64,000 nt of DNA from Nemertoderma westbladi (GCA_032718475.1 JAUCBJ010001237.1:1-64000), one strand, 5' to 3'. Counted from the stretch's first letter, positions 139 through 41,811 are shown. Notes: a model not told the origin generated them from the letters alone. Translations and numbers: made by a program.

Positions 139-212
139 CTGCAAGTATAGATAGGATGCACCTTAAAGCTCCATGTTCAATAGAAGTGGATTAGATGGAA
201 GCGTCTGAACTG

Positions 213-263: not shown

Positions 264-316
264 TCAACCCCCGGTGACGTGCTTTCCCATTGTTACCATT
301 TCTGAATCAAATCCTC

Positions 317-3300
317 CTCGTCCCTTTCCCTATCAATAGACTTACATTCTCTCGCGTCCCTTTCCCTATCGATAGACTTACATTCTCTCGCGTCCCTTTG
401 CCCTATCGATAGACTTACATTCTCTCGCGTCCCTTTGCCCTATCGATAGACTTACATTCTCTCGCGTCCCTTTACCCTATCGATAGACTTACATTCTCTC
501 GCGTCCCTTTGCCCTATCGATAGACTTACATTCTCTCGCGTCCCTTTACCCTATCGATAGACTTACATTCTCTCGCGTCCCTTTGCCCTATCGATAGACT
601 TACATTCTCTCGCGTCCCTTTGCCCTATCGATAGACTTACATTCTCTCGCGTCCCTTTCCCTATCGATAGACTTACATTCTCTCGCGTCCCTTTACCCTA
701 TCGATAGACTTACATTCTCTCGCGTCCCTTTGCCCTATCGATAGACTTACATTCTCTCGCGTCCCTTTACCCTATCGATAGACTTACATTCTCTCGCGTC
801 CCTTTGCCCTATCCATAGACTTACATTCTCTCGCGTCCCTTTCCCTATCGATAGACTTACATTCTCTCGCGTCCCTTTACCCTATCGATAGACTTACATT
901 CTCTCGCGTCCCTTTGCCCTATCGATAGACTTACATTCTCTCGCGTCCCTTTGCCCTATCGATAGACTTACATTCTCTCGCGTCCCTTTACCCTATCGAT
1001 AGACTTACATTCTCTCGCGTCCCTTTGCCCTATCGATAGACTTACATTCTCTCGCGTCCCTTTCCCTATCGATAGACTTACATTCTCTCGCGTCCCTTTG
1101 CCCTATCGATAGACTTACATTCTCTCGCGTCCCTTTGCCCTATCGATAGACTTACATTCTCTCGCGTCCCTTTGCCCTATCGATAGACTTACATTCTCTC
1201 GCGTCCCTTTACCCTATCGATAGACTTACATTCTCTCGCGTCCCTTTGCCCTATCGATAGACTTACATTCTCTCGCGTCCCTTTGCCCTATCGATAGACT
1301 TACATTCTCTCGCGTCCCTTTCCCTATCGATAGACTTACATTCTCTCGCGTCCCTTTCCCTATCGATAGACTTACATTCTCTCGCGTCCCTTTACCCTAT
1401 CGATAGACTTACATTCTCTCGCGTCCCTTTACCCTATCGATAGACTTACATTCTCTCGCGTCCCTTTGCCCTATCGATAGACTTACATTCTCTCGCGTCC
1501 CTTTCCCTATCGATAGACTTACATTCTCTCGCGTCCCTTTCCCTATCGATAGACTTACATTCTCTCGCGTCCCTTTCCCTATCGATAGACTTACATTCTC
1601 TCGCGTCCCTTTACCCTATCGATAGACTTACATTCTCTCGCGTCCCTTTGCCCTATCGATAGACTTACATTCTCTCGCGTCCCTTTCCCTATCGATAGAC
1701 TTACATTCTCTCGCGTCCCTTTACCCTATCGATAGACTTACATTCTCTCGCGTCCCTTTACCCTATCGATAGACTTACATTCTCTCGCGTCCCTTTGCCC
1801 TATCGATAGACTTACATTCTCTCGCGTCCCTTTGCCCTATCGATAGACTTACATTCTCTCGCGTCCCTTTGCCCTATCGATAGACTTACATTCTCTCGCG
1901 TCCCTTTCCCTATCGATAGACTTACATTCTCTCGCGTCCCTTTGCCCTATCGATAGACTTACATTCTCTCGCGTCCCTTTCCCTATCGATAGACTTACAT
2001 TCTCTCGCGTCCCTTTGCCCTATCGATAGACTTACATTCTCTCGCGTCCCTTTCCCTATCGATAGACTTACATTCTCTCGCGTCCCTTTACCCTATCGAT
2101 AGACTTACATTCTCTCGCGTCCCTTTGCCCTATCGATAGACTTACATTCTCTCGCGTCCCTTTCCCTATCGATAGACTTACATTCTCTCGCGTCCCTTTA
2201 CCCTATCGATAGACTTACATTCTCTCGCGTCCCTTTGCCCTATCGATAGACTTACATTCTCTCGCGTCCCTTTACCCTATCGATAGACTTACATTCTCTC
2301 GCGTCCCTTTGCCCTATCGATAGACTTACATTCTCTCGCGTCCCTTTACCCTATCGATAGACTTACATTCTCTCGCGTCCCTTTGCCCTATCGATAGACT
2401 TACATTCTCTCGCGTCCCTTTGCCCTATCGATAGACTTACATTCTCTCGCGTCCCTTTCCCTATCGATAGACTTACATTCTCTCGCGTCCCTTTGCCCTA
2501 TCGATAGACTTACATTCTCTCGCGTCCCTTTACCCTATCGATAGACTTACATTCTCTCGCGTCCCTTTGCCCTATCGATAGACTTACATTCTCTCGCGTC
2601 CCTTTGCCCTATCGATAGACTTACATTCTCTCGCGTCCCTTTACCCTATCGATAGACTTACATTCTCTCGCGTCCCTTTACCCTATCGATAGACTTACAT
2701 TCTCTCGCGTCCCTTTCCCTATCGATAGACTTACATTCTCTCGCGTCCCTTTGCCCTATCGATAGACTTACATTCTCTCGCGTCCCTTTGCCCTATCGAT
2801 AGACTTACATTCTCTCGCGTCCCTTTGCCCTATCGATAGACTTACATTCTCTCGCGTCCCTTTGCCCTATCGATAGACTTACATTCTCTCGCGTCCCTTT
2901 CCCTATCGATAGACTTACATTCTCTCGCGTCCCTTTACCCTATCGATAGACTTACATTCTCTCGCGTCCCTTTACCCTATCGATAGACTTACATTCTCTC
3001 GCGTCCCTTTACCCTATCGATAGACTTACATTCTCTCGCGTCCCTTTACCCTATCGATAGACTTACATTCTCTCGCGTCCCTTTGCCCTATCGATAGACT
3101 TACATTCTCTCGCGTCCCTTTCCCTATCGATAGACTTACATTCTCTCGCGTCCCTTTCCCTATCGATAGACTTACATTCTCTCGCGTCCCTTTACCCTAT
3201 CGATAGACTTACATTCTCTCGCGTCCCTTTCCCTATCGATAGACTTACATTCTCTCGCGTCCCTTTACCCTATCGATAGACTTACATTCTCTCGCGTCCC

Positions 3301-6132
3301 TTTGCCCTATCGATAGACTTACATTCTCTCGCGTCCCTTTGCCCTATCGATAGACTTACATTCTCTCGCGTCCCTTTGCCCTATCGATAGACTTACATTC
3401 TCTCGCGTCCCTTTGCCCTATCGATAGACTTACATTCTCTCGCGTCCCTTTGCCCTATCGATAGACTTACATTCTCTCGCGTCCCTTTCCCTATCGATAG
3501 ACTTACATTCTCTCGCGTCCCTTTGCCCTATCGATAGACTTACATTCTCTCGCGTCCCTTTGCCCTATCGATAGACTTACATTCTCTCGCGTCCCTTTGC
3601 CCTATCGATAGACTTACATTCTCTCGCGTCCCTTTGCCCTATCGATAGACTTACATTCTCTCGCGTCCCTTTGCCCTATCGATAGACTTACATTCTCTCG
3701 CGTCCCTTTACCCTATCGATAGACTTACATTCTCTCGCGTCCCTTTGCCCTATCGATAGACTTACATTCTCTCGCGTCCCTTTGCCCTATCGATAGACTT
3801 ACATTCTCTCGCGTCCCTTTGCCCTATCGATAGACTTACATTCTCTCGCGTCCCTTTGCCCTATCGATAGACTTACATTCTCTCGCGTCCCTTTGCCCTA
3901 TCGATAGACTTACATTCTCTCGCGTCCCTTTGCCCTATCGATAGACTTACATTCTCTCGCGTCCCTTTACCCTATCGATAGACTTACATTCTCTCGCGTC
4001 CCTTTCCCTATCGATAGACTTACATTCTCTCGCGTCCCTTTACCCTATCGATAGACTTACATTCTCTCGCGTCCCTTTGCCCTATCGATAGACTTACATT
4101 CTCTCGCGTCCCTTTGCCCTATCCATAGACTTACATTCTCTCGCGTCCCTTTACCCTATCGATAGACTTACATTCTCTCGCGTCCCTTTGCCCTATCGAT
4201 AGACTTACATTCTCTCGCGTCCCTTTGCCCTATCGATAGACTTACATTCTCTCGCGTCCCTTTCCCTATCGATAGACTTACATTCTCTCGCGTCCCGTTG
4301 GCCTATCGATAGACTTACATTCTCTCGCGTCCCTTTCCCGATCGATAGACTTACATTCTCTCGCGTCCCTTTACCCTATCGATAGACTTACATTCTCTTG
4401 CGTCCCTTTGCCCTATCGATAGACTTACATTCTCTCGCGTCCCTTTGCCCTATCGATAGACTTACATTCTCTCGCGTCCCTTTCCCTATCGATAGACTTA
4501 CATTCTCTCGCGTCCCTTACCCTATCGATAGACTTACATTCTCTCGCGTCCCTTTCCCTATCGATAGACTTACATTCTCTCGCTTCCCGTTGGCCTATCG
4601 ATAGACTTACATTCTCTCGCGTCCCTTTCCCGATCGATAGACTTACATTCTCTCGCGTCCCTTTACCCTATCGATAGACTTACATTCTCTCGCGTCCCTT
4701 TGCCCTATCCATAGACTTACATTCTCTTGCGTCCCTTTCCCTATCGATAGACTTACATTCTCTCGCTTCCCTTTGCCCTATCGATAGACTTACATTCTCT
4801 CGCGTCCCTTTGCCCTATCGATAGACTTACATTCTCTCGCGTCCCTTTGCCCTATCCATAGACTTACATTCTCTCGCGTCCCTTTACCCTATCGATAGAC
4901 TTACATTCTCTCGCGTCCCTTTGCCCTATCCATAGACTTACATTCTCTCGCGTCCCTTTACCCTATCGATAGACTTACATTCTCTCGCTTCCCTTTGCCC
5001 TATCGATAGACTTACATTCTCTCGCTTCCCTTTGCCCTATCGATAGACTTACATTCTCTCGCTTCCCTTTGCCCTATCGATAGACTTACATTCTCTCGCG
5101 TCCCTTTCCCTATCGATAGACTTACATTCTATCGCGTCCCTTTGCCCTATCCATAGACTTACATTCTCTCGCGTCCCTTTACCCTATCGATAGACTTACA
5201 TTCTCTCGCGTCCCTTTGCCCTATCGATAGACTTACATTCTCTCGCGTCCCTTTACCCTATCGATAGACTTACATTCTATCGCGTCCCTTTGCCCTATCC
5301 ATAGACTTACATTCTCTCGCGTCCCTTTGCCCTATCGATAGACTTACATTCTCTCGCGTCCCTTTACCCTATCGATAGACTTACATTCTCTCGCTTCCCT
5401 TTGCCCTATCCATAGACTTACATTCTCTCGCGTCCCTTTGCCCTATCGATAGACTTACATTCTCTCGCTTCCCGTTGGCCTATCGATAGACTTACATTCT
5501 CTCGCTTCCCTTTGCCCTATCCATAGACTTACATTCTCTCGCGTCCCTTTACCCTATCGATAGACTTACATTCTCTCGCGTCCCTTTGCCCTATCCATAG
5601 ACTTACATTCTCTCGCTTCCCTTTGCCCTATCGATAGACTTACATTCTCTCGCTTCCCTTTGCCCTATCGATAGACTTACATTCTCTCGCTTCCCGTTGC
5701 CCTATCGATAGACTTACATTCTCTCGCGTCCCTTTACCCTATCGATAGACTTACATTCTCTCGCGTCCCTTTGCCCTATCGATAGACTTACATTCTCTCG
5801 CTTCCCTTTGCCCTATCCATAGACTTACATTCTCTCGCGTCCCTTTGCCCTATCGATAGACTTACATTCTCTCGCGTCCCTTTACCCTATCGATAGACTT
5901 ACATTCTCTCGCGTCCCTTTGCCCTATCGATAGACTTACATTCTCTCGCGTCCCTTTGCCCTATCGATAGACTTACATTCTCTCGCTTCCCTTTCCCTAT
6001 CTATAAACTTACATTCTCTCGCGTCCCTGTCCCTATCGATAGACTTACATTCTCTCGCATCCCTTTACCCTATCGATAGACTTACATTCTCTCGCGTCCC
6101 TTTACCCTATCGATAGACTTACATTCTCTCGC
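317..6132. repeat. 36/37-bp satellite array 1 (~158 units): CTATCGATAGACTTACATTCTCTCGCGTCCCTTT(G/A/-)CC
   Basis: Directly visible tandem repeat; copy number estimated from length divided by period. Confidence 0.98.
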
Positions 6133-7171
6133 TCCCAGATCTCAACAATCACCGCCCCACTCGGTAGCGACACTGCTCCACTGGTTAACTCAGGGTTCTT
6201 CACTCCCATCAATAACCTGTGATATGTACCAAGATTGCAAGATATGTACTCATGTGGTTAGTTTATCTGGTAATCAACCAGTTTTTTTTTGTGTTACGGT
6301 AACTAATTAGCCATATGGTTCCAGGCTTTGTCACTTATCTCCTGGTTAGAAATCTTATCTTTGAAAACATATAAACTCTTTTTTTTAGGCTTAATGATGG
6401 AAACGCTCCCAATTTATTAATTTTTTTTTCTTTTTATTACATAATTATTATAGCTCAAGTTCTATGATTATCAGTTTAATGTAATAACTAAAATTTAAAT
6501 TATATACCCTACCGGTACTTAAGCTAGTAAGTCTAACAGTCTGGGATTTTCATATGTGTACATGATCCATATACACCTACTTTCGTAAATGGTTTTGAAT
6601 TGATCTGAATTGATGGTTTTGAAAATGGTGCATAAAAATACATACTGCACAATACTGCATAATATAAATAAATCACAATTTACCGGTAATTTATTTTACA
6701 TTGTCTTATGTAAATCTGGTGTAAATCAGTAAATTAATGGACGGCAGGATAATACATGTTTAAAGTCATATAATATAATTGACTTGCCTAGGTAACATAA
6801 ATGGTCTAACTCTGTACAGTAGTTTACAATAAATCACGTGTATATAAATACATTGATACATTAAACTTGAAATAAAATTAAATTTACAGTTTGAAATATA
6901 TCAGTTACGTAGCTACAGTGTAAAAAGTAGTATCACATATGTACAGTAAAATTTATCTAACTAGGTACAATAAACTATGAACACCATATAAAATAAATAA
7001 TTATGAAGTTCAATAAAATACAATGTTTATTATGTTAATTAATAATCATAATAAATGTATTCATTGGTACTTGGAGTACATAGATTAGATTATATATTGA
7101 TGCTTGAAGTTAATAATGCTGTGCAGTTAGTACTGTACTGACTACATTTTATCGTTTAAACTATCTTCGCC

Positions 7172-8532
7172 TTGGTTAGTGCCTCGTCATTTTCTCCCAG
7201 ACAAATTAAACAGTCTGTCAATTGTACTATCATTTTAGCCAACCCCTGTCAGTTGCCATCTCTTGTGGATGATGGCTGCGGGTTTTGCTATACCCGTATT
7301 TGCCTCCGCGAGGCCCACTTTCACTGCCCACTATGTGGTTTATCCTTTCATTTTCAATGTGGCTCCCATATTCCAACCTCAGATTTCGAATCTAATCAAA
7401 TCTATTGGTGCTTTCACTGTTTACATGAAACCTTTCCCTTCTCTGGAATTCCTGACAATGATTTAGACATATTTTATGATAATCTGGATAATATTAATAA
7501 CAACATCTCTGTAGACGAGGTAAACAATTACTTTGAAAGTATTAACCCGGACGGTAATATTACATCATACCTAACCACAAATGAGTATTTTAATTTCGAT
7601 AAATTTGATACTTTGTACAAATCCTGTGACCACCCATTGTCTGTGTTTCACTTAAACTGCCGCAGCCTCCCTGCCAATTACTCGGAAATTTCTAACTTTT
7701 TTGAAACTCTTGAGTCGCGATTTGATATTATTACTTTCAGTGAAACTTTTCTGACCGATAATATTGAGCTGGGCCCACTTAGCTTCGCTGGTTATACCTC
7801 TCCTTTCTGTGATTTTCGGGATTCAATGAAACCTCGTGGTGGCACTGCGATTTACGTTCGTAATGAATTGGATGTCACTGAGAGGAGTGACATTAAGATT
7901 ATTGGACCGGAAAATAAGTGGATCCAGGTCAATCATCCACATTCCAATAAACCGCTAATAGTAGGTTGTATTTACCGTTCACAACAAGTTGACACTAGTA
8001 ATTTTATCTCGAACCTCGATTCAACACTGCATACTTTGGCTGACAAAAATTATGATGTTATCGTTACAGGAGATATTAATATTGATCTATATGGGAATAA
8101 TGCTAATACCATTAATTCCCAGGATTATTTAGCTGCTTTGTCCTCCAATGGTTTCACCCAGCTGATAGACAAACCAACCAGAATAACTCCCTTCTCTCGT
8201 ACTCTAATCGATCACATTAGTACAAACATTAAATCTTCCTTGTGTCACCATGGTGTTTTCCTCCATGAAATTGGCACATCTGACCATTTATCTACTTTCA
8301 TTTTGCTATCTGATTATAACACTTATTTTAAACCTGAGAGTTCCAAGACTAGTTACGATTTCTCTCAGTTTAATAAAAATAATTTCATTGACAGCTTAAA
8401 TAATCCTGATTTGTGGACTTATAAGAGTCTGAATGTCCCCTCTACAGACCGCTTCAATTGCTTCTATAAGGATTTCCAAAATATTTGTTCTCATAATCTC
8501 CCGACCAAAATAATAACAAAAAAAGATTTACC
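7172..8532 (+). pseudogene. LINE ORF, 5' half: PHD-like finger and APE endonuclease
   Basis: Cys/His pattern CxxC..CxxC..HxxC..WCxxC; APE motifs HLNCRSL, FSETFL, RGGTAIYV, GDINID, IDHI, SDHL. Confidence 0.92.
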
Positions 8533-9605
8533 AGTAGTAATAGTTTACCCTACTTCTGCGACAGTTTAGTCCTACTTCACACCTTGGGTGTTAAGTAGGT
8601 CATTAATTAATTAATCAATTAATTAATTGGTCGATTAAACAATTAATTAATTGTTTAATCAATCGATTCGTATCAAATAATGTTGCCAAAGGCAATTTAA
8701 TTTGATACAAATCAATCAGATAGGGGGCGCGAGATGAATAAATTGTACTACAACAAATGAAATATACAATACAATATACAATACATTTGTATTATTTTTG
8801 CCATACAATAAAATGATATAATTAAATATAAAGACGCAATCGAGGCCCAAAACATAAATATACCCTTTCACCAAAATAAAGTGGCCCCAGTTTGGTCCCG
8901 AGTCATCCCTCAATAATCTATGGCTGCTCGGGCTCTTATTAACCGTATAGCATGACTAACCCAATCATCAATGCGTGAATGGGGCATGCGATAGAGCTTA
9001 AATTATTCATACCCACAGCTTCGTTATTATATCAATTCATCCAAGAAATTAGAATAAACATCTGGTATGGCATTAGTTTGCATTCTTTCGCATTGTACTT
9101 TATGAAGCAGTCCACGTGCATATTAGCCCTACAACAAAGCCCTACCCAAAACACCACATGTCAAATTAATTCCCAAACCATCTCTTTACTACAGTGGATA
9201 CTGCAGTTTTTTTTGTTTGAAGTAATTTCAGTTGCTCTAGCGTAACATTAATTAACATACCCAGTCTGACGCAGCAACCCATTCATTACACACACTTTTC
9301 TCCGTTGCACTCCCCCGCTTCTCAATTCATCCCATTTCCCTTCGTAACTAATGTTTTACATTTAATTAACCCAATGAAATGTGTTTATTATTCCCTCAAT
9401 CCAATAGCGCGTCTCTCTCTCTCTCTTTTTTATTTCTATTGGTTCCCACAAGCTTCACTTTTATTTTCATTGGTCAGCCTTTCCCTTATAAACCCCCACC
9501 CATCGCTTCGAACTTTACTTACAAAAATATTATTGACAATTTTACTTTTTATTTAAAGTTATAATACATTTATTGTTATACATAATATTATATTTTCTTC
9601 AAGAT
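8533..9605 (+). repeat. Left terminal inverted repeat (1073 bp)
   Basis: Reverse complement of 23348-24418; about 2 substitutions and 2 single-base homopolymer indels seen. Confidence 0.97.
9401..9492 (+). promoter_or_regulatory. Putative Pol II promoter in the TIR (CCAAT boxes + TATA); mirrored in the right TIR at about 23460-23555
   Basis: CCAAT at 9401, ATTGG at 9438 and 9469 (31 bp apart), TATAAA at 9487-9492, pointing inward. Confidence 0.6.
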
Positions 9606-9736
9606 TGTTATACGTAACACATTTATTATTATAAATAATATATTGTTGCAAACATCAACGTGATTTGATTTTCCTTCTTATTATTCCTAATCGAGCAATT
9701 TTCTTTTTCCAATACCACGCACGAATCAATCTGCAG

Positions 9737-9860
9737 GTAAGAACAATAAATTTGTATTTTTATGAATTCGTTTAGTTTTAACATTATTACCTCAAAATAA
9801 ATATCAAACCCGCGAAACCTTCCCAAACTTATTATTATTATTTAGTTTTTTATTTTATAG
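9737..9860 (+). other. Putative 5'-UTR intron of the pPolB gene
   Basis: CAG|GTAAGA donor; T-rich tract ending TTTTATAG five bases before the ATG at 9866. Confidence 0.6.
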
Positions 9861-9865
9861 CAAAC

Positions 9866-12800
9866 ATGCCTATGTCACCAAAATTCGTTGACTGTCCCGT
9901 CTGCAATAAGAACATGCGCAGTGACAATCTCAACAAACATCTCGCATCTCATTTTAAACAATATTCATGCGATTGTTGTGGCACCTGGTCCTCCGATAAG
10001 AAAACCATGGTTAGCCATCTAGCGCTATGTACGCAAGGTGGGACTGGGTTCAGATTTATCAACGAAGAAAACACTTGCAAGTGTGGCGAATCATTCACTT
10101 TATCAGCCTTTAAAGAACACGATTGCTATACGCGACTCTTCTCTCGGAAACGCAAACAATCTCAAACGCCCTTGTCACCACCACCACCACCTCCACCACC
10201 AAACATTCAATCTCCAGGGGTTGGCCCTTCTACTTCAAGACAACAGACTGGAGGTTCGACCAACAACCCATTTTTACCATCCGTGAATAGCTCATCCCAC
10301 AACCGCTTATTTACATATACAAACACGTTACTTACACCACAATTAGATGTAGAGTTAACACTTAGAGAAAATGAAAGTTATATTTGGGATAGAGTGAGTC
10401 AACATTTTAATAATGAATTTAATTTTATAAAAGTTTGGTTAACTATTTCTATCTTAATGGAAAGGGAGACATCTGAGGATACTCAATTAGAAACCTTCTG
10501 TTTCAAATCAAACGCTTCAAATAATCAAATAACTTCTAATTCAGATTTTGAAAACTGGTTTTCGCAAACTATCGAACGAATAGATGAATTAATAGCAGTC
10601 TTTGTTTGCATGGGCAGTGGTTGGAATATTGTTTCAATTAAAGAAATCAATTTACAAATTTCTACCTTCAACCGCAACCCATATTTCAAAGGACACGGTG
10701 GTGGTTATATTCCTAAAATTTTAGCAAAGAAGAAGTGCATTATTAACTTAGATTGTCCCATCGGGGAATGTTTTAAGTATGCAGTAGTCGCGGCCGCTTG
10801 TTATAAAAAAATTGAAAGAAAGAAACAAAACATTAGTCGATTGTCAACATATACTCCATACATGACCATGTTTGATTTCAGTACGATGAGTTTCCCAGTA
10901 GATAGAGTAGTAGGCATCCCACGTTTTTTAGAAACCAACCCTTTGTACTGCATTAATTTATTATTTTGGAGTACTGATAACACATTGAGCATTCTATCAC
11001 AACCAGATTCAGAACATTGCTTCCAAAAAACTGTTTTAAATTTAATGTTTATAGAAGGTAATCAAAACAATCCAGGACATTACTGCGCAATTGTCAACTT
11101 AAATAGACTTATTAAAAAACAAGGACAAAAGAACAAATCAATTTGCGAGCGTTGTCTGAGAGCTTTTTATACTATCAACTCATTGCAAACTCACCGGGAA
11201 CTATGTTACTCGAGCAAACGACAATTGGAACAAATGCCTACACCAGATAAATTAAAAATTAAATTCAATCGATTGGATAAAACATTATCCCCTCCCTTTT
11301 GCATATATGCCGATATTGAAAGCGTTTTAGAACCTACATCAAACCCTAAATTAGTTCAAAAGCACATTGCTAGCGCCGCCGCATTTTATACAGTACCAAA
11401 TCGCGAGCTAATAAATCCCCCGCAAACATCATTACAAATGTTTAGAGACACTGGAACAAACCATGTTATAGACGATTTTCTCACTGCCCTCGAATCACAC
11501 TGTAGGGAATTGTACGAATGGACTATTTCTGGTACAAACACCAATGTTCCTAAACATTTGACTCGAGCACAGCAACAAAATTTTGATAATGCTACAAACT
11601 GTTACACTTGTAACTGTTCTCTAACCCCCGATTCACACGGACTGAATCTAGCAGAAAATCTCAATACTAAAGTTTGTGACCACAACCATCTAACGGGAGC
11701 CTATCGTGGGGCGGCATGTGTTAGTTGTAACCGCAAACTTTCTCTTAAACGCAATAAATTTTATGTAGTGCTACACAACCTGAGGCATTACGATTCCCAT
11801 TTAATATTAAAAGAAGGTCTGAAAAACAGTTCTAGAACTCATTGGAAGATAAACGTAATTCCAAAGAACACTGAGACTTATATCAGTATAGAAATATCAT
11901 TTCCCATAGACAAAACCATGCAGACAGCAAATGCAAAAGAAAGTATTGTCATCAATCTTCTAGACTCTCTACAGTTCATGACAGCTAGTCTAGATAAGCT
12001 CAGTAGTTATCTTACTGCAAACAATTCTGATCTAACAAAAGCTATCCCACACACTTTGAAACAAATGAAAAATCTTTATCCCAATATTAGCGATTCCACT
12101 ATTAAAAACAAAGGTATATTTCCTTATAGCTATATTCAATCCTTATCAAACTTATACGAAACTCAATTACCACCAATCGAGAGTTTCTATAACGATTTAC
12201 AGCTTGAAGACTGTAGCGAGCATAACTATCAGCGTGCCCAAACTAGTTGGGTTGAGCTTCAATGTCAAAATATATTTGATTATATGATGGGGTACTTGGC
12301 TCTAGATGTCACACTTCTCGCGGATACTTTCCAACAGTTTAGGGAACTATGTTTCTCCAATTATGGGTTAGATCCTCTGCATTATTATACTTCACCGGGG
12401 TTAACGTACGATGCGGCATTGAAATTTACAAACAGTGAAATTGAACTACTATCTGATGGAACTATTTACGCAGATTTTGAAAATAATATTCGTGGAGGGC
12501 TTGTATTTCTGAATACACACTTAGAGGAAGCTAATATACCTGGCAAACCAGAATACAACCCCTGTAAACCAGAAAAATACCTAATTCCTCTCGATGCAAA
12601 TAACCTTTATGGTTCTGCTCTCTCTCAGAAGCTCCCCTGCAGTAATATGAAAATCGTCGATACACCAATAGATCTGGCTACAGTGGATGCCACTGGGTCA
12701 GTGGGATATTACTGCATCGTTGACCTGGAATACCCCCGAGAGATCCACGACGAAACTGCCGACCTACCACTAGGAGCGGAAAAAATGTCCATTCCCAAGA

Positions 12801-13927
12801 GCTTTCTTAGTACATACATGCAAGACCTCTGGCAACATTATAATCTCAATGATCAAGGGACCTATAAGCAATATAATGAGAAATATAGTAAACTGATTCT
12901 TCATCAATTCAAAAAAACTAATTATGGTATTCATATAAAATTACTCCAATTATACTTAAAATTAGGACTTCAAATAACACAGGTGCATAAAGTATACTCA
13001 TTCACTCAAAAATACATATTCAGAGACTATATCTCGTTTAATACATCCAAACGACAATCCGCCAAAAATGCTTTCGAAGTTTTATTTTATAAACTACTCA
13101 ACAACTCACTCTATGGGAAAAGTCTTCAGAAGGTACGAGACCGGCTATCATTCCGACTCTGCACATCCCCAGAACAGTGCGATCTACTATTATCAAAACC
13201 AAATCATGAGCGCTTCGTCTCATTCTCCCCCTATCTCAGTGGTCACACTTTTACTAAAGAAGTAGCAGTACTCAATCAAGCTGTATTTATTGGAGCAACC
13301 ATCTTAGATCTTTCAAAGCTAGAGATGTATGATTACTATTACTGTAAACTGAAACCTCTCGAAGAAAAGCTGAGATGTGAAATTCGAGCCTTAGCCGGAG
13401 ACACGGACAGTTTCTTTCTTTCGGTTACCGGTGTTGAGCACAAAATATTCCTAGAAGCCATGTTTAACTCCGGCTTTCTAGACACTTCAAATTACGACCC
13501 CTCACACCCACTCTTTACAAATCAAAACAAGGCTTCCTTAGGTTTTTTGAAAGATGAAAGTAGAGGTCTATTATACAAATCATTTGTATTTTTAAAACCG
13601 AAAATGTATTCATTCGAGGCATACGATGCGCAACCAAAGCGGACTTGCAAAGGAATTTCAAAAAATATTGTAGCCAAGCAATTAACACATAAACACTATT
13701 TAGACTGTTTTATCAACGAATCAACAGATTACACAAACAACACAATATTTACTTCTAGGGAGCATCAAATGTTTACGGGGAGAATAAAAAAAAAAACATT
13801 AAGTCTCTGGGATACAAAATCATTCTGGATGACGAAATATTACAGTAGACCATATGGCCACTATATTACGGGGTTAACTAAACCAACAAAAAAAACTGTA
13901 ATACCACCTTATTTAGTTGCAGAATAA
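9866..13927 (+). CDS. Protein-primed family B DNA polymerase with N-terminal zinc fingers, vOTU-like region and an endonuclease VII-like insertion
   Basis: Exonuclease motifs YADIES and HNLRHYDSH; polymerase motifs LDANNLYG, KLLNNSLYGK, DTDS, KMY; CDHNHLTGAYRGAACVSCN insertion. Confidence 0.97.
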   Translation: MPMSPKFVDCPVCNKNMRSDNLNKHLASHFKQYSCDCCGTWSSDKKTMVSHLALCTQGGTGFRFINEENTCKCGESFTLSAFKEHDCYTRLFSRKRKQSQTPLSPPPPPPPPNIQSPGVGPSTSRQQTGGSTNNPFLPSVNSSSHNRLFTYTNTLLTPQLDVELTLRENESYIWDRVSQHFNNEFNFIKVWLTISILMERETSEDTQLETFCFKSNASNNQITSNSDFENWFSQTIERIDELIAVFVCMGSGWNIVSIKEINLQISTFNRNPYFKGHGGGYIPKILAKKKCIINLDCPIGECFKYAVVAAACYKKIERKKQNISRLSTYTPYMTMFDFSTMSFPVDRVVGIPRFLETNPLYCINLLFWSTDNTLSILSQPDSEHCFQKTVLNLMFIEGNQNNPGHYCAIVNLNRLIKKQGQKNKSICERCLRAFYTINSLQTHRELCYSSKRQLEQMPTPDKLKIKFNRLDKTLSPPFCIYADIESVLEPTSNPKLVQKHIASAAAFYTVPNRELINPPQTSLQMFRDTGTNHVIDDFLTALESHCRELYEWTISGTNTNVPKHLTRAQQQNFDNATNCYTCNCSLTPDSHGLNLAENLNTKVCDHNHLTGAYRGAACVSCNRKLSLKRNKFYVVLHNLRHYDSHLILKEGLKNSSRTHWKINVIPKNTETYISIEISFPIDKTMQTANAKESIVINLLDSLQFMTASLDKLSSYLTANNSDLTKAIPHTLKQMKNLYPNISDSTIKNKGIFPYSYIQSLSNLYETQLPPIESFYNDLQLEDCSEHNYQRAQTSWVELQCQNIFDYMMGYLALDVTLLADTFQQFRELCFSNYGLDPLHYYTSPGLTYDAALKFTNSEIELLSDGTIYADFENNIRGGLVFLNTHLEEANIPGKPEYNPCKPEKYLIPLDANNLYGSALSQKLPCSNMKIVDTPIDLATVDATGSVGYYCIVDLEYPREIHDETADLPLGAEKMSIPKSFLSTYMQDLWQHYNLNDQGTYKQYNEKYSKLILHQFKKTNYGIHIKLLQLYLKLGLQITQVHKVYSFTQKYIFRDYISFNTSKRQSAKNAFEVLFYKLLNNSLYGKSLQKVRDRLSFRLCTSPEQCDLLLSKPNHERFVSFSPYLSGHTFTKEVAVLNQAVFIGATILDLSKLEMYDYYYCKLKPLEEKLRCEIRALAGDTDSFFLSVTGVEHKIFLEAMFNSGFLDTSNYDPSHPLFTNQNKASLGFLKDESRGLLYKSFVFLKPKMYSFEAYDAQPKRTCKGISKNIVAKQLTHKHYLDCFINESTDYTNNTIFTSREHQMFTGRIKKKTLSLWDTKSFWMTKYYSRPYGHYITGLTKPTKKTVIPPYLVAE

Positions 13928-13928
13928 A

Positions 13929-14453
13929 ATGCCATACAAAGCAAGCAGCGGATCAATACCAATTCAAATAATCAATCGCCAATATACAGCTCAAACTGAA
14001 TTTCCAATTGATATAATCAAAGTTTCTCAACAACTAAAAGGTGAGATGCGGCAAAAACCAAAAATGTTTGTGTATAAGACTGGATCTGCGACAATTATGC
14101 TATTCCCAACTGGTTCAATAACAATAGTGGGTCCATGTAAAAATATTTGTAATGATTTACTTTATCTGAAACAATGTACCAACATACTAATTAAGAAAAT
14201 TAAATTAAATACAGTGACCAGACTAATTAAGTTACCATCTCTTAATTTTAAATCATTAAGTAAAAAGTGTGGACATCATTTTGTAAACAATGTAAAGGTA
14301 TATATTGATTTTACGCCGGAGCTCTTTTGTGGAATTCGATTGTATATTGGGCGATGTTATTTCAGTGTCTTTCACTCGATGAAAGTTATAAGTATGTGTC
14401 CTGTTGGTGATTTTGAAGAAGCTCTCATTATATTATTTAGTTTATTGAATTAA
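13929..14453 (+). CDS. Divergent TATA-binding-protein-like protein (174 aa)
   Basis: Two-repeat pattern. ATIMLFPTGSITIVG resembles TBP TALIFSSGKMVCTG; FTPELFCGIRL…FSVFHSMKVI resembles YEPELFPGLIY…LIFVSGKVV. ATG lies 1 nt after the pPolB stop. Confidence 0.75.
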   Translation: MPYKASSGSIPIQIINRQYTAQTEFPIDIIKVSQQLKGEMRQKPKMFVYKTGSATIMLFPTGSITIVGPCKNICNDLLYLKQCTNILIKKIKLNTVTRLIKLPSLNFKSLSKKCGHHFVNNVKVYIDFTPELFCGIRLYIGRCYFSVFHSMKVISMCPVGDFEEALIILFSLLN

Positions 14454-14461
14454 TAAGTAAA

Positions 14462-14650
14462 ATTATCTCTCAATATACTACATGTCATTATACTGTATGT
14501 GCGGTTTTATATATTTATGTGATTATATTATCTCTCAATATACTACATGTCATTATACTGTATGTGCGGTTTTATATATTTATGTGATTATATTATCTCT
14601 CAATATACTACATGTCATTATACTGTATGTGCGGTTTTATATATTTATGT
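14462..14650. repeat. Three copies of a 65-bp direct repeat inside the Polinton
   Basis: ATTATCTCTCAATATACTACATG… starts at 14462, 14527 and 14592. Confidence 0.95.
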
Positions 14651-14957
14651 AAAAAATATATTGAATTATATTATTAATAACATCTTACCTTGAGAACAAG
14701 TAATGGGGACCCACCTCTCCTCACCAAACCCCTCCCGAAAAAGTCCGTAAGGCCAAGGTTTACTGCGCTTGTTCTCCATTGAGTGATTAGTTGTTAAACT
14801 GGTGAATTCATTATATAAATTTAAATATTTACTAAAGCCGCTAGATGGCATGCATTTGTGACACGAACATTAATTTCATATTATACTGTATAAACGTTAA
14901 AATTCAATTATTATTTTAATAAATATAATAATAATTGTGTTATAAAAGGAAAACACG

Positions 14958-15584
14958 ATGGATATAGTAGATATGCGGTTTCGTTTTGGAAGTACAATAT
15001 TAATAGCCGGTCCTAGTGGTAGTGGAAAAACTTCTTTCTTGGAGAAAATGTTATTAAATAGGAAATTGATCTTTAACGAAACTCCAAACAGTATTACTTG
15101 GTTTTATGGACAGACGAAACCAATAATTAAAGGGGTTAATATTACCGCTTTAAATGAAATTCCAGAACACTTTAATGAAAATGTGAAAAACCATTCTATC
15201 ATTATAATCGACGATTTGATGACAGAACTACAAAATTCCAAACAAGCGACTACGCTATTTACTAAAGTAGCTCGACATACAAATTCATTGGTAATTTTTC
15301 TCACTCAAAACCTTTATCAAAAAGGAGGAGAATCTAGGACCCGATCCATTAATTCCACTTATTTCTTATTGTTCAAAAATCCGAGGGATCAGACACAGAT
15401 AAGAACTTTAGCCTATCAGATGAAACCAAATACACCCAAATTCTTAATCGCGGCATTTCAAGACGCAACAAAGGTTCCCTTTAACCCACTTCTTATTGAT
15501 TTTCATCAATTAACGAATGATAGCCTACGCATACGTGGTTATTTATTTACAAATGAACATTGTGTTTATCAACCCGTGTCGTAA
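14958..15584 (+). CDS. A32-like genome packaging ATPase
   Basis: Walker A GPSGSGKT, Walker B IIIIDD, ARH, LTQN and FKNPRD motifs. Confidence 0.95.
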   Translation: MDIVDMRFRFGSTILIAGPSGSGKTSFLEKMLLNRKLIFNETPNSITWFYGQTKPIIKGVNITALNEIPEHFNENVKNHSIIIIDDLMTELQNSKQATTLFTKVARHTNSLVIFLTQNLYQKGGESRTRSINSTYFLLFKNPRDQTQIRTLAYQMKPNTPKFLIAAFQDATKVPFNPLLIDFHQLTNDSLRIRGYLFTNEHCVYQPVS

Positions 15585-15597
15585 TATACGTAGAAGA

Positions 15598-15735
15598 ATG
15601 CTTCTATTAGCAATTGTCTGTTATTTAGTTATATTATACTTATTTGTGGTTTATCATCGACAAAGGTTTCTTAAATTTCTTAATAGTATAGAACAAGTAT
15701 GGAACTTAATATACGAAAGTATAGGAAAGAACTAG
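15598..15735 (+). CDS. Small putative membrane protein (45 aa)
   Basis: Hydrophobic N-terminus MLLLAIVCYLVILYLFVV; fills the gap between the ATPase and the next gene. Confidence 0.45.
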   Translation: MLLLAIVCYLVILYLFVVYHRQRFLKFLNSIEQVWNLIYESIGKN

Positions 15736-16040
15736 AATTTTTGAAAAATAGCAACGCATTAGCGCGAGGGGCATTTATTCGAAAAAAGGCTAGTAGCGAA
15801 TTAATACGACTTCTCGTTAATATTACACTGAATACGCTCTATGGGAATATAAATATTGATGGAAAGATTGTTAAAAAATTGAAGCCTTATAAGAAATATA
15901 TGAGACGATTGAAATCGAAAAATTCAGTTTCACTTCAAAGACGTTCTCTCTCTCAGGCTGGGGGGTTCCTTCCACTTATTTTGCCACTGTTGATAGGCGC
16001 CACAAACATTGCCACAACTGTTGCCACAGCGTTAACATAG
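15699..16040 (+). CDS. Basic virion core-like protein with protease site and hydrophobic tail
   Basis: K/R-rich body followed by QAGG|FLPLILPLL, the adenovirus pX-like motif common in Polintons. Confidence 0.8.
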   Translation: MELNIRKYRKELEFLKNSNALARGAFIRKKASSELIRLLVNITLNTLYGNINIDGKIVKKLKPYKKYMRRLKSKNSVSLQRRSLSQAGGFLPLILPLLIGATNIATTVATALT

Positions 16041-16042
16041 CC

Positions 16043-16225
16043 ATGTCATTCAAGAAACTATATTTAATAACCCCCGAACAACATGCTAGGTTGCAACCAA
16101 CACAGTTGAAAACTAAACCTTTAATTAAAGAAACAAAGAAAAAAGGTCAAAATAAACGGACAATAAACGATAGAAGAAAAGTGTTGAAACTGTTTGATTA
16201 TACGCGCCGCAAATCGCGAAAATAA
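16043..16225 (+). CDS. Small basic protein
   Basis: Tightly packed with neighbours, GCCATG start context, lysine-rich. Confidence 0.5.
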   Translation: MSFKKLYLITPEQHARLQPTQLKTKPLIKETKKKGQNKRTINDRRKVLKLFDYTRRKSRK

Positions 16226-16294
16226 TGTCTTGGTTAAAAAAACTTTCAATAACTTGCAATTTTCGTTGTCTGTGCAATTCTAGCAGTGTTACCT

Positions 16295-17365
16295 ATGGCT
16301 ATGATCAACAAGATGGTAGAAAAACGCTTAGCCAAAGCTTACTACAATCCTTCAAGTGTTGCAGGGTTTTCCACTGTAGGAAAGCTAGCAAAAGAGACGG
16401 GAGTCAATCCAAAACTCGTGAAAAGATGGCTTCAAAGTCAGCCGACCTTCACATTGCATGCCCCAGCGAGGCGTCTGTTTCCCACAAGCCGAATGTATTT
16501 TTATGGAATTAGTGACACCATTCAGGCAGATTTAATAGATATGCAAAAATATCGTGCAACAAACTCAGGTTATGGATATATTCTAACCGCAATCAACTGT
16601 TTTAGTAAGAAGGGGTGGGCATTACCATTGAAACGGAAGACTGGTATTGAAATTAAACATGCACTACAGTCTATTTTTACTGAAGAAGTACCACGTAATT
16701 TATGTACAGATCAAGGGTTGGAATTCGACAATAAAGTTGTACTCAATTACTTGAAAATGAAAAAAGTTAAATATTATACAACACGATCGCAGTTCAAAGC
16801 AGCCATTTGCGAAAGGTATAATAGAACGATAAAGACAAAGATGTATAAAATTTTTAGTAGAAGAGGTAACCATAAGTGGCTTGCTATTCTACCAAAAATT
16901 GTATACTCTTATAATAATTCTATACATAGATCTATTGGAATGCCCCCAATTCAAGTCAATAAGTCGAATGAAGATAACGTGAGAAGAAACCTCTATGGAA
17001 ATTTAGCTAAAATCATTGTAACAAAACCCAAATTGAGAATAGGTGACAATGTGCGACTTAATATAGCTAAAACGGCGTTTGAAAAAGGTTATACAAAAAA
17101 TTGGACCGGTGAGGTGTTTACTGTAAAACGTATAAGACTAGATCGTTTTCCTCAGCCTATGTATCATATAATAGATTCAGTTGATAGAGAAATAGAAGGA
17201 ACATTTTACCCTCACGAATTGCAAAAGGTTACACAAACAACTGATATTCACCCAATCGAGTCCATTTTGAAGTCTCGAATAAAAAACGGTCGGAAGGAAT
17301 TCCTTGTAAAATTTAAAAACTATAAACGGAACTCTTGGTTGAGCGAATCCCAACTACGTAAATAA
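16295..17365 (+). CDS. Retroviral-like DDE integrase with C-terminal chromodomain
   Basis: QADLIDM, TDQGLEF, ERYNRTIK; chromo-like IESILKSR…EFLVKFKNY…SW. Confidence 0.96.
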   Translation: MAMINKMVEKRLAKAYYNPSSVAGFSTVGKLAKETGVNPKLVKRWLQSQPTFTLHAPARRLFPTSRMYFYGISDTIQADLIDMQKYRATNSGYGYILTAINCFSKKGWALPLKRKTGIEIKHALQSIFTEEVPRNLCTDQGLEFDNKVVLNYLKMKKVKYYTTRSQFKAAICERYNRTIKTKMYKIFSRRGNHKWLAILPKIVYSYNNSIHRSIGMPPIQVNKSNEDNVRRNLYGNLAKIIVTKPKLRIGDNVRLNIAKTAFEKGYTKNWTGEVFTVKRIRLDRFPQPMYHIIDSVDREIEGTFYPHELQKVTQTTDIHPIESILKSRIKNGRKEFLVKFKNYKRNSWLSESQLRK

Positions 17366-17375
17366 ATCAACAAAA

Positions 17376-18997: not shown

Positions 18998-19028
18998 ACG
19001 ATAAATAAGGAAATATATTTAGGAAGCA

Positions 19029-19637: not shown

Positions 19638-19663
19638 ACTAAATAATAACACTGGAAGAAACC

Positions 19664-20902: not shown

Positions 20903-20912
20903 AAAGAAAAAC

Positions 20913-21341: not shown

Positions 21342-21636
21342 TATTATTAATTGTGTTACAATGTGTTATATCTTATGTGTTACAATGTGTTATATCTTAA
21401 ATGTTACTCTGCTATATGTATATGTGTTATGTTATAAATATAATTTCAATGTTGCTATATTAAAAATAAGAAAATAGTCGACTATATTTCATTTTTCTTT
21501 TTCAACTTTGGATAAATAATATAAGGGTTAAACAAAGAACATCAAAACAGTTAAACAGCTACATTTAACATTTAGACAGTAAACAGTAACAGTAAACATT
21601 TACATGACCAGTTACAATAGACAAGTAACATAAAGT

Positions 21637-24418: not shown

Positions 24419-24424
24419 TTTACC

Positions 24425-26384
24425 TAAGAAACCATGGCTTACGGCATCACTTCTGACTGCTATTAAACGGAAAGGCTATTTATACACAAAATCTGTTTCA
24501 AACCCATCTGAGTATAATCTTACGGCATATAAAAAATATAGGAACTTGCTTACTTCACTTCTCCGTGCAGCTGAAAAACAATATTATTCAAAAGAATTCG
24601 AGAAAAATAAGTCGAGTATAAAAAAAACCTGGCGTACTATAAACTCTGTTCTTCATCGCGGGAAAAATCTCTCACATCCCAAAAAACTAGTCTCCATTGA
24701 TCATAAAGTAACTCTTACAGATCCTAACGACATAGTAAACGAATTCAATAACTTTTTCACCACCATCGGTCCGTCTTTGGCCGCTGCTGTACCTAGTTCC
24801 ACACGCTGTCCCACTGGTCATATCAGTTATAAGAAATCGAATTCATTTGGACTAACTGAGACATCCCCGGTCGAGGTTCAATATAACATTTTACATCTCA
24901 AAGAAGATTCTGCCTCTAATGATAATTTTCCTATCAAATTACTTAAATTTGGCGCATATCCCCTATCATTACATTTGGCCACTCTAATAAATCTTAGTTT
25001 TACCCAGGGCTTTTATCCCAGTCTACTTAAGGTTGCAAAGGTGATTCCCGTATATGAGGGCGATTGTCCTCTGAACCCATCTAACTATAGGCCGATCTCA
25101 TTGCTTTCTGTTTTCAATAAACTATACGAAAAACTGATTAATGATCAAATTGTTTCTTACCTTGAACGTTACTCAGTCATCTGTCCAAATCAATTCGGGT
25201 TTAGGAAAAAATTCACGACAACTTTTGCTGTTCTTAATATTGTAGAAAATATTCGTACCGCCTTAGATAATAAAGAATCCACTTCAGTTGTATATATAGA
25301 CCTAAAGAAAGCTTTCGACTCTTTGGACATAGGAATTCTTCTGAAGAAACTTTGCTCGTACGGTATCCGCGGGACTCCTCACTCTCTACTTACAGATTAC
25401 CTATCTGAACGTTCCCAGTTTGTTTCCATAGCCAATATCCACTCTTCCATCAAACCGGTCACCTGTGGAGTTCCCCAAGGATCTATTTTAGGACCACTTC
25501 TATTCCTCCTATATATCAACGACCTACCAAATTCCAGTAAACTTCGAACCACTTTATTCGCTGATGATACCAGCCTTAGCCATACAACAGCATCGGTTAG
25601 CGATATGTTTCTATCGGTTAACTCAAATCTGACAAGTGTATCTAAGTGGATAAATGATAATAAATTAACAATAAACCTCAAAAAAACAGAATATACAATC
25701 TTTTCCAATCTCCACGGCAACTTCAGACAGTTAAACCCAATTCATATTGATGGCAAACAAATTAAACAAGTTTCAGTTTCCAAGTACTTAGGCCTACACA
25801 TAGACAGTAAACTAACATTTCGCCAACATGTCCAGTATGTTCTCAATAAAATATCTAAATCCGGTGGCATTTTTTTCAGACTAAGACATTTACTCCCCCT
25901 CCAAATAATGCGTACCCTATTCTTTTCTCTTATCTATCCTTACATAAACTACGGGTTAGTTGTATGGGGGGGTACATACACTTCGATCTTAAAACCTTTA
26001 CGAATTAAAATTAATAAAATAGTTAGGTGCTTATCTTTCAGCCACCGCCGATCATCTTCAATTCCTATCTACCGTAAGCTACAAATCTTACCCCTTGAAG
26101 CTTTATATAAGCACCAGATCTGTAATCTAATGTACGATATATCCCGTAACCCTAAACACCCACTGGCATATTTATTTCGTAAAACTGCTTCTATCCATTC
26201 ATATAATACTCGCTCTTCTAAATCTGGCCATTTTAATCTCCCTTCAGTCCGTCTTGAAGTTGCCCACCAATCTGTTGCTTTTCAAGGTCCCCTACTATGG
26301 AATTCACTGTCTGATGACCTTCGAAATATTGTTGTTAAATCAATCTTTGCCAAACAACTAAAAAGGCATTTACTTGATCTATAA
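24425..26384 (+). pseudogene. LINE ORF, 3' half: reverse transcriptase and C-terminal domain
   Basis: NYRPISLL, QFGFR, DLKKAFD, GVPQGSILGP, FADD, KYLG. Confidence 0.95.
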
Positions 26385-26670
26385 TCGGTTACCATCATCC
26401 ACTATGTCTTATTGGTCACAATTAACCACTCAGTCAAATTGATTACAATTATCGACTATGACACATCGGTAAATATTTATCCACTCTGATTCATCCATCC
26501 ACTCTGTCTCATCGGTCGCATTTATCTACCTTGAAATATTGGTCACAATTTTTCCACTCTTACTCATCGGTTTCAATTATCCAGTCTGTCACATCTTTTA
26601 GAATTATACCCTCTGCGTATCATCGGTTACAGTTATCCACTTTGACATATCGACCTCAATTATCAACTCT
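26385..26670 (+). repeat. Degenerate ~27-bp tandem repeat in the LINE 3' UTR
   Basis: Recurrent TATCCACTCTG…CATCGGT.ACAAT-like units. Confidence 0.7.
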
Positions 26671-27086
26671 GAAACTTATATTACTATCCTACTCATTACT
26701 CTAGAATGCCACCGTTTTTTCTCACTCCCCTCAATTTCACAGTCTGCAGTCTGGTCAGTGAGAAGGTCCTCGCGGGAGTACTCTGGGTTGGCTTCCCACA
26801 GTTATCATTCTCAGGTGTATAAGATGGTTACCCAATTCTTTGGTGTCATACCGCCAATCCACCCCCCCCCCCCCCCCCCTCGCAAATCAACTTGTTAGTA
26901 AAAGGTTACCCAGGCACAGCACTAGCTTTGCTATTGTGTCTAAGTAATCTCCTAAAATTGTAGGCACCAGTCAATGGCGATTGATAAACAATGACGTTTA
27001 GTAATTATATTACTATTCCATACAATTTTTGGTGCGGTGCATCTGTATTGTTTGTGAGGTATCTTGAAATTATATACTGAAACATC

Positions 27087-39000: not shown

Positions 39001-41693
39001 TTACCCTATCGATAGACTTACATTCTCTCGCTTCCCTTTACCCTATCGATAGACTTACATTCTCTCGCGTCCCTTTCCCTATCAATAGACTTACATTCTC
39101 TCGCGTCCCTTTCCCTATCGATAGACTTACATTCTCTCGCGTCCCTTTGCCCTATCGATAGACTTACATTCTCTCGCGTCCCTTTGCCCTATCCATAGAC
39201 TTACATTCTCTCGCGTCCCTTTGCCCTATCGATAGACTTACATTCTCTCGCTTCCCTTTCCCTATCAATAGACTTACATTCTCTCGCGTCCCTTTCCCTA
39301 TCAATAGACTTACATTCTCTCGCATCCCTTTGCCCTATCGATAGACTTACATTCTCTCGCGTCCCTTTACCCTATCGATAGACTTACATTCTCTCGCGTC
39401 CCTTTCCCTATCTATAAACTTACATTCTCTCGCGTCCCTTTGCCCTATCTATAAACTTACATTCTCTCGCGTCCCTTTGCCCTATCCATAGACTTACATT
39501 CTCTCGCGTCCCTTTGCCCTATCGATAGACTTACATTCTCTCGCGTCCCTTTCCCTATCGATAGACTTACATTCTCTCGCGTCCCTTTACCCTATCGATA
39601 GACTTACATTCTCTCGCTTCCCTTTACCCTATCGATAGACTTACATTCTCTCGCGTCCCTTTCCCTATCAATAGACTTACATTCTCTCGCGTCCCTTTCC
39701 CTATCGATAGACTTACATTCTCTCGCGTCCCTTTGCCCTATCGATAGACTTACATTCTCTCGCGTCCCTTTGCCCTATCCATAGACTTACATTCTCTCGC
39801 GTCCCTTTGCCCTATCGATAGACTTACATTCTCTCGCTTCCCTTTCCCTATCAATAGACTTACATTCTCTCGCGTCCCTTTCCCTATCAATAGACTTACA
39901 TTCTCTCGCATCCCTTTGCCCTATCGATAGACTTACATTCTCTCGCGTCCCTTTACCCTATCGATAGACTTACATTCTCTCGCGTCCCTTTCCCTATCTA
40001 TAAACTTACATTCTCTCGCGTCCCTTTGCCCTATCCATAGACTTACATTCTCTCGCGTCCCTTTGCCCTATCGATAGACTTACATTCTCTCGCATCCCTT
40101 TGCCCTATCGATAGACTTACATTCTCTCGCGTCCCTTTACCCTATCGATAGACTTACATTCTCTCGCTTCCCTTTCCCTATCAATAGACTTACATTCTCT
40201 CGCGTCCCTTTCCCTATCAATAGACTTACATTCTCTCGCATCCCTTTGCCCTATCGATAGACTTACATTCTCTCGCGTCCCTTTACCCTATCGATAGACT
40301 TACATTCTCTCGCGTCCCTTTCCCTATCTATAAACTTACATTCTCTCGCGTCCCTTTCCCTATCAATAGACTTACATTCTCTCGCGTCCCTTTCCCTATC
40401 GATAGACTTACATTCTCTCGCGTCCCTTTGCCCTATCGATAGACTTACATTCTCTCGCGTCCCTTTGCCCTATCCATAGACTTACATTCTCTCGCGTCCC
40501 TTTGCCCTATCCATAGACTTACATTCTCTCGCGTCCCTTTCCCTATTGATAGACTTACATTCTATCGCGTCCCTTTACCCTATCGATAGACTTACATTCT
40601 CTCGCGTCCCTTTGCCCAATCGATAGACTTACATTCTCTCGCGTCCCTTTGCCCTATCCATAGACTTACATTCTCTCGCGTCCCTTTGCCCTATCCATAG
40701 ACTTACATTCTCTCGCGTCCCTTTGCCCTATCCATAGACTTACATTCTCTCGCGTCCCTTTGCCCTATCGATAGACTTACATTCTCTCGCGTCCCTTTCC
40801 CTATCGATAGACTTACATTCTCTTGCGTCCCTTTGCCCTATCGATAGACTTACATTCTCTCGCGTCCCTTACCCTATCGATAGACTTACATTCTCTCGCG
40901 TCCCTCTACCCTATCGATAGACTTACATCCTCTCGTGTCCCTTTGCCCTATCGATAGACTTACACTCTCTCGCGTCCCTTTGCCCAATCGATAGACTTAC
41001 ATTCTCTCGCGTCCCTTTACCCTATCGATAGACTTACATTCTCTCGCGTCCCTTACGCTATCGATAGGCTTACATTCTCTCGCGTCCCTTTACCCTATCG
41101 ATAGACTTACATTCTCTCGCGTCCCTTTACCCTATCGATAGACTTACATTCTCTCGCGTCCCTTTACCCTATCGATAGACTTACATTCTATCGCGTCCCT
41201 TACGCTATCGATAGACTTACATTCTCTCGCGTCCCTTTACCCTATCGATAGACTTACATTCTCTCGCGTCCCTTTGCCCTATCGATAGACTTACATTCTC
41301 TCGCGTCCCTCTACCCTATCGATAGACTTACATTCTCTCGCGTCCCTTTGCCCTATCGATAGACTTACATTCTCTCGCGTCCCTCTACCCTATCGATAGA
41401 CTTACATTCTCTCGCGTCCCTCTACCCTATCGATAGACTTACATTCTCTCGCGTCCCTTACCCTATCGATAGACTTACATTCTATCGCGTCCCTTACGCT
41501 ATCGATAGACTTACATTCTCTCGCGTCCCTTTACCCTATCGATAGACTTACATTCTCTCGCGTCCCTTTGCCCTATCGATAGACTTACATTCTCTCGCGT
41601 CCCTCTACCCTATCGATAGACTTACATTCTCTCGCGTCCCTTTGCCCTATCGATAGACTTACATTCTCTCGCGTCCCTTTGCCCTATCGATAG
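27087..41693. repeat. 36/37-bp satellite array 2 (~400 units); its last unit is the real exon end and splice donor
   Basis: Same unit as array 1 with more variants; runs directly into the exon at 41663-41811. Confidence 0.98.
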
Positions 41694-41811
41694 ATGACTC
41701 CTTTGAAACCTCCTGGTTGCATCCAACTGAAACCGACGTCTTTCCTCCAGCACACTTTCCCTTCTCTTCTCCTCCCGTTCCTGTTCTTGGCGGCGTTTTG
41801 TTTCCAAAGCC
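41663..41811 (-). CDS. CEP126/KIAA1377-like coding exon (ALETKRRQEQEREEKRRESVLEERRRFQLDATRRFQRSHLSIGQRDARE)
   Basis: Acceptor tgtttcag, donor GTAAGT (41662-41657); phases fit both neighbouring exons. Resembles recalled CEP126 AFEEKRKEQEEKE…EVTEKFQRAHVPLSQR. Confidence 0.8.

Follow-up and report, generated by a model that had tools for sequence, protein, structure and literature searches.

The stretch of Nemertoderma westbladi DNA analysed here (GCA_032718475.1, JAUCBJ010001237.1:1-64000; 64,000 nucleotides (nt), hereafter the window) carries on its minus strand part of a gene that we identify, from its predicted protein, as a homologue of CEP126 (CEP126/KIAA1377, PF15352), which is reported to be required for primary cilium formation (PMC4293463). 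The end of one coding exon of this gene, together with its splice donor, recurs several hundred times in the following intron, in two tandem arrays. The exons and arrays concerned are:

52166..52282, minus strand: exon 2, a putative upstream coding exon of the CEP126-like gene, with AG and GTAAGT ends, a frame continuous with exon 3 and alignment to CEP126 homologues
41663..41811, minus strand: exon 3, 149 nt, covered from 41811 to 41661 by an assembled contig of run X5 and matched by homologues carrying PF15352
27087..41694, minus strand: Array A, ~400 units (400.7 copies by Tandem Repeats Finder) of 52 types
317..6132, minus strand: Array B, 158 donors, with 17 unit types, seven of them common with Array A
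41..138, minus strand: exon 4, joined to the first donor in contigs of runs X4 and X5; its LEDAL motif aligns to homologues

The identification of the gene followed from a phmmer match (P0122) that was extended to a three-row profile, which recovered 13 longer proteins; 10 of these carry PF15352, and three bear the name CEP126 or CE126-like. Joined in order, exons 52282-52166, 41811-41663 and 138-41 give a stop-free frame of 121 amino acids with 33-49% identity to all 13 homologues, and in this frame the FQRxH and LEDAL motifs fall within an N-terminal coiled-coil block like that of the named CEP126 proteins. Pfam returned no match for exon 3 alone or for exon 4 alone. The top phmmer match, P0121, was a repetitive wasp protein without an aligned stretch and was discarded. 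The acceptor AG of exon 4 lies at 140-139 and its own donor, GTTAGT, at 40; the remainder of the gene falls beyond window position 1, and the longest contig is 979 nt. An open frame at ~53100-53350 on the minus strand is a candidate first exon.

Architecture of the satellite arrays

The satellite unit, 36/37 bp long, comprises the last 31 nt of exon 3 followed by GTAAGT on the minus strand. The founder copy is 41693-41663, the authentic donor GTAAGT stands at 41662, and the first unit in the intron consists of GTAAGT and then precisely the final 31 nt of the exon, in agreement with the original prediction of a unit of 31 exonic and 6 intronic bases. That prediction also described a ~20-kb satellite with ~550 near-identical donors, and both figures stand: the arrays amount to 20,392 nt (~20.4 kb) and hold 556 donor-like 9-mers including the authentic donor (552 AAT/GTAAGT and four variants), a density of 54 per 2 kb, against a chance background of one GTAAGT in the upstream intron of 10,352 nt. 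Three refinements apply: founder-type sequence is present in just 117 of the 550 scored units (three fused units of 70-71 nt were excluded), 243 of 553 units are 36 nt long, and the repeat forms two blocks parted by a 20,954-nt insert, a long interspersed nuclear element (LINE) with a nested Maverick. Together with a 178-nt tail these make up the intron of 41,524 nt. Tandem Repeats Finder called Array B at 317-6136 with 158.2 copies; the array stops mid-unit at 317, and the original intron sequence past GTAAGT is therefore not visible.

Array A contains irregular higher-order blocks of up to 12 units, whereas 20 shuffles gave no block of six units or more. Array B lacks two variants that are frequent in Array A (64 and 42 units), so the two arrays likely turned over separately after they were split. 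Every unit opens with a 10-bp palindrome (41684-41693 in the exon copy) that sits exactly where the duplication joins, and this palindrome may have contributed to seeding or destabilising the repeat. Through this palindrome the array RNA is predicted to fold modestly better than shuffled sequences (z -2.2, 7 of 200), and its G-quadruplex potential is weak (G4Hunter maximum 0.8). An array of recursive splice sites was considered and rejected: no AG within a unit is followed by GT, and pyrimidines make up 20-47% of the sequence before each AG.

Choice of the first donor

The RNA evidence consists of assembled contigs, from a set of six listed sequencing runs, none of them recorded as RNA, of which X1 to X5 were compared with the window; run X2 was compared on the upstream stretch only and run X4 on the downstream stretch only. 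In a 979-nt contig of run X5, letters 350-500 correspond to 41811-41661 and letters 501-597 to 136-40, contiguously, the two extra bases at the joint being the GT common to exon 4 and the donor. The two parts were taken as one contig on the strength of equal length and a depth of 37.9 in both, and on exon 3 the contig stops at both exon ends. The GT..AG joint recurs in a 342-nt contig of run X4, whose loose end consists of unique exon 3 sequence and holds no further repeat. The first donor is therefore joined to the acceptor at 139 in both of the spliced-type runs, which come from two studies, and no contig in either continues into GTAAGT. Neither of the DNA runs compared at this site, X1 and X3, contains the joint, which rules out a retrocopy. 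X4 and X1 derive from the same sample and have a common allele at 41706; thus a repeat-carrying sample splices at the first donor. The spliced contigs use the first donor only, and the exon, its donor and the acceptor predicted at 139 are all used in them.

The original prediction left the spliceosome either to pick the first donor among hundreds of equals or to make a ladder of extended exons. The former was seen in both contigs, and a ladder would yield stop-containing RNAs only. Donor 1 alone leaves the frame open, and the other 555 of the 556 donors bring in a stop. For donor 2, which lengthens the exon by 37 nt, this stop lies in exon 4; for the remaining 554 (donors 3-556) it lies within the extension itself. 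Since all 555 later donors lead to a premature stop, a protein ladder is excluded on this allele. RNAs with premature stops are substrates of nonsense-mediated decay (NMD), and any leaky products from the later donors would be expected to share this fate.

Structural masking of the later donors was rejected as an explanation of the choice. The predicted accessibility of the first donor is 0.032, against 0.001-0.123 for 38 later donors (a last site, at the edge and with a value of 0.306, was set aside); accessibility thus does not favour the first donor over the others, which leaves its position as the explanation. The commonest 36-nt unit, read by hand, is open in the exon frame, and units so built could add 12 residues each if adjacent to the exon. 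The units adjoining the exon here are 37 nt, as are 72% of the first 40 in Array A.

Probable origin of the repeat at a single locus

Coding spacing and sequencing depth together support the claim that the satellite arose in situ from the splice junction. The spacing from FQRxH to L[ED][ED]AL is 23 amino acids here, compared with 20-26 in 7 of the 13 homologues, namely those in which both motifs were found; the founder copy is therefore not extra coding sequence. Two homologous proteins, P0122 and P0124, diverge from the family alignment at both ends of exon 3, and P0124 leaves it with the same 'CK' as a read-through of the exon 3 donor. This may hint that the junction is ancient and older than the repeat.

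The depth of the repeat is 327-405x single copy in X1 and 79x in X3, compared with 556 copies in the window, depth not being copy number; X3 is nearly identical to the window and may be its source. A depth of hundreds fits one locus, in contrast to the neighbouring hammerhead repeat at 10,000-fold. Sample S1 represents a diverged haplotype with many intron differences from the window (for example, 15 letters in 1,025), and it carries the repeat and both array ends. A record of X2 crosses the repeat start with 39 letters on the repeat side, and one of X1 crosses the array end with 30 letters, one below the bar of 31. Presence of the repeat with both its ends in a second, diverged haplotype, at a depth expected of one locus, argues against both an assembly artefact and a dispersed satellite.

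These data bear directly on two other accounts of the array. Had a satellite already present elsewhere entered the intron, with its first copy captured as the end of the exon, the weak resemblance of the ten founder-coded residues to those of the homologues would be explained; against this, the coding spacing is normal, P0122 and P0124 hint that the junction may be older than the repeat, the depth corresponds to a few hundred copies, and the unit has no further copy in the rest of the window or in metagenome contigs, which together make capture very unlikely. That the length of the array is an artefact of assembly is scarcely credible: no record spans an array and the depth in X3 is just 79x single copy, but the 52 and 17 unit types fall in non-random blocks of up to 12 units, the inserted elements have clean target duplications, and the repeat and both its ends were found in sample S1.

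The insert that divides the arrays comprises two mobile elements:

6133..27086, plus strand (antisense to the gene): non-LTR (long terminal repeat) retrotransposon (LINE), with an APE endonuclease at 7160-8569 and a reverse transcriptase at 24402-26384
8533..24418, plus strand: Maverick/Polinton-type element nested in the LINE open reading frame (ORF), with 1.07-kb terminal inverted repeats that are 99.6% identical

The LINE inserted within a unit and is flanked by a 5-bp target duplication (CTCGC); the Maverick-type element has AGTAGT termini and a 6-bp target duplication. These duplications indicate that the array came first, then the LINE and then the Maverick-type element, which looks young. 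At least 10 long ORFs lie within the latter, including an integrase and packaging-ATPase-like, protease-like and long polymerase-like frames. Pfam identified rve, Pox_A32 and a weak Peptidase_C5 (below cut-off), gave no PolB match and confirmed neither polymerase nor capsid; the class name Maverick and the polymerase label are assigned from general features of such elements. The 3' end of the LINE is without a poly(A) tail, and degenerate 27-bp repeats follow directly after its reverse transcriptase stop (26384-26661).

A very large exon-boundary minisatellite

The original prediction treated this arrangement as unprecedented, whereas it belongs to a described class, the exon-boundary (splice-donor) minisatellites or mirages (PMC1557585, PMC5954066, PMC3087553), of which it is a very large case, unusual in its size and its nested insertions. 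Its first unit spans a real boundary, its head-to-tail copies reiterate an intact donor, and the first donor is mainly used, as far as contigs blind to minor forms can tell. A close likeness is to the 37-bp tandem repeat of variable copy number (VNTR) in intron 7 of human F7, where a first unit likewise spans the boundary, identical donors recur from unit to unit and splicing takes the most upstream of them, a rule examined with 50 constructs in which the most upstream functional donor is reported to win (PMC1557585). The F7 repeat is described with 5-9 copies and 4 exonic bases, in contrast to ~555 copies, 31 exonic bases, a non-mammalian host and division by mobile elements in the present case. 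The same source places boundary minisatellites in CBS IVS13, 6-16, LAMIN B2 and PDGF, with two further donors also used in CBS and 6-16 (PMC1557585).

The 25-bp VNTR in ABCA7 intron 18 likewise begins at the donor GT and is long (up to ~427 units, 10.7 kb), with use of the second donor reported at 2 +/- 1% and yielding an NMD-sensitive frameshift (PMC5954066). Its unit is described as free of exonic sequence, and the length of the repeat as linked to next-exon skipping (PMC5954066), an effect not shown here. The present array is about twice as long, and its ~555 copies exceed ~427, the largest number among the cases compared here, which implies no record. Lancelet mirages (Adh3, globin) are also tandem duplications of exon boundaries with turnover in an invertebrate, and the RT-PCR (reverse transcription PCR) reported for them found no disturbance of normal splicing; the globin mirage has 3-6 copies, one to two orders of magnitude below the array here (PMC3087553). 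Chicken LL2R RNA likewise comes from a tandem repeat that is transcribed and has many donors but few acceptors or poly(A) signals; its unit, however, is 160 kb and non-coding with >5 predicted donors per 2 kb and demonstrated recruitment of small nuclear ribonucleoproteins (snRNPs), whereas the present array has 54 per 2 kb within a protein-coding intron and any recruitment is hypothetical (10.64898/2026.03.19.712899).

The array is best explained as an exon-boundary minisatellite in a CEP126-like gene that is likely near-neutral, a reading to which we assign a probability of roughly 0.8. A 37-bp piece across the exon 3 donor would have undergone duplication in place, and the usual turnover of repeats would have raised it to ~555 copies. 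The most upstream donor would win by position, as was shown experimentally in human F7, and leak to later donors would carry a premature stop and be removed by NMD; copies would then cost little, leaving the array free to keep growing. The LINE, and then the Maverick inside it, landed later and split the array. If so, the first-donor rule, established with 5-9 copies in F7, stretches to ~555 near-identical donors in a distant animal, and the locus offers a natural experiment on how position governs the choice among 5' splice sites and on the amount of unpaired U1-binding RNA that an intron tolerates.

The array may load mutations on the coding exon, since 361 of the 550 intronic units would produce a stop or frameshift if recombination substituted them for the exonic copy. 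In X4, the copy in the exon has a synonymous change in the founder unit (41684-41706) that matches a variant in three intronic units (19, 29 and 254), a possible sign of exchange between the array and the coding exon.

Several observations weigh against the near-neutral, in-place account. The ten residues encoded by the founder copy are poorly conserved across the homologues, their number alone being kept. The 3' end of the array is cut mid-unit, and the search for the unit covered this one locus and metagenome contigs. Runs X4 and X5 bear the label 'DNA?', their reading as RNA resting on coverage confined to exons; the X5 sample may have another genotype at the array; and assembled contigs lose rare forms while NMD would hide mis-spliced RNA, so that leakage is invisible to them. 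In ungapped blocks, no donor-column mutation reaches at least three copies, compared with 7 of the 20 other columns, a lack of spreading that pure neutrality does not predict; this effect is borderline and post hoc (p 0.016-0.05 unstratified, 0.05-0.15 stratified).

In a rival, functional account the donors would load U1 snRNP and serine/arginine-rich (SR) proteins on the nascent RNA, selection would keep them, and the array would slow or detain splicing of the intron or seed a local splicing-factor condensate, tuning CEP126 output. The lack of spread donor-column mutations is one hint in its favour. Counted by carriers, no other 9-column window varies as little as the donor 9-mer (10 versus at least 22), and the array is common to two diverged haplotypes. 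Its donor density is ~10x that of chicken LL2R, whose donor-rich RNA is reported to recruit snRNPs (10.64898/2026.03.19.712899), and long ABCA7 alleles are reported to increase next-exon skipping (PMC5954066). Counted by distinct alleles, however, the donor window does not stand out (9, range 5-13), and p rises to the stratified values above once columns are split by base class; the donor is A/T-rich and unit variants fall mostly on G/C, which weakens the hint of donor conservation. Retention or exon 4 skipping was seen in no contig, although contigs cannot exclude either, and U1 binding may be a by-product without function. We regard a functional array as unlikely. Its stronger form is more doubtful still: that selection maintains the array as a sponge for U1 snRNP made from the gene's own junction, with ~555 donors loading spliceosome parts to pace splicing or seed a condensate, its length a heritable dial on a ciliogenesis gene and donor-breaking variants kept from spreading.

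The idea that the array is a U1 landing pad shielding the intron, filled with transposable elements, from premature polyadenylation (telescripting) found no support as a reason for its existence and is highly improbable. The insert does contain 30 sense-strand AATAAA motifs and the arrays none, but the insert landed within the array, which is thus older, so protection does not explain it. Of the 30 motifs, just one is no farther than 1 kb from the last upstream donor and eight are within 5 kb, leaving 29 more than 1 kb downstream; the reported median reach of telescripting is ~0.5-1 kb (PMC5499120). The upstream intron contains 10 AATAAA motifs and a single GTAAGT.

Other features of the window

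The end of Array B adjoins a further repeat:

197..294, plus strand (antisense to the gene): repeat of high copy number that contains a type-I hammerhead-like core at 223-246, recognised by motif

The depth of this repeat is ~10,000x single copy in X1, and tandem copies at other sites are evident from loose ends in X1, X3 and X5. Rfam gave no match to the core at the gathering score; the repeat resembles Penelope- or retrozyme-type motifs as described (PMC4209133). As the core is antisense to the gene, it would not cut the CEP126-like pre-mRNA.

A second satellite of 4 kb, with 14/21/35-bp subunits, occupies 47162-51147 in the upstream intron of the CEP126-like gene, and a 19-bp minisatellite of ~42 copies lies at 58704-59535. 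The short repeat at 42541-42906, tRNA/SINE-like (short interspersed element) by eye, is high-copy, with up to ~2,000x single-copy depth, and a similar copy is found at ~56270-56500. An apparently intronless OTUD6B-like gene is predicted at 62582-63439 on the minus strand, with at most 47% identity among the 120 matches listed and no close clade.

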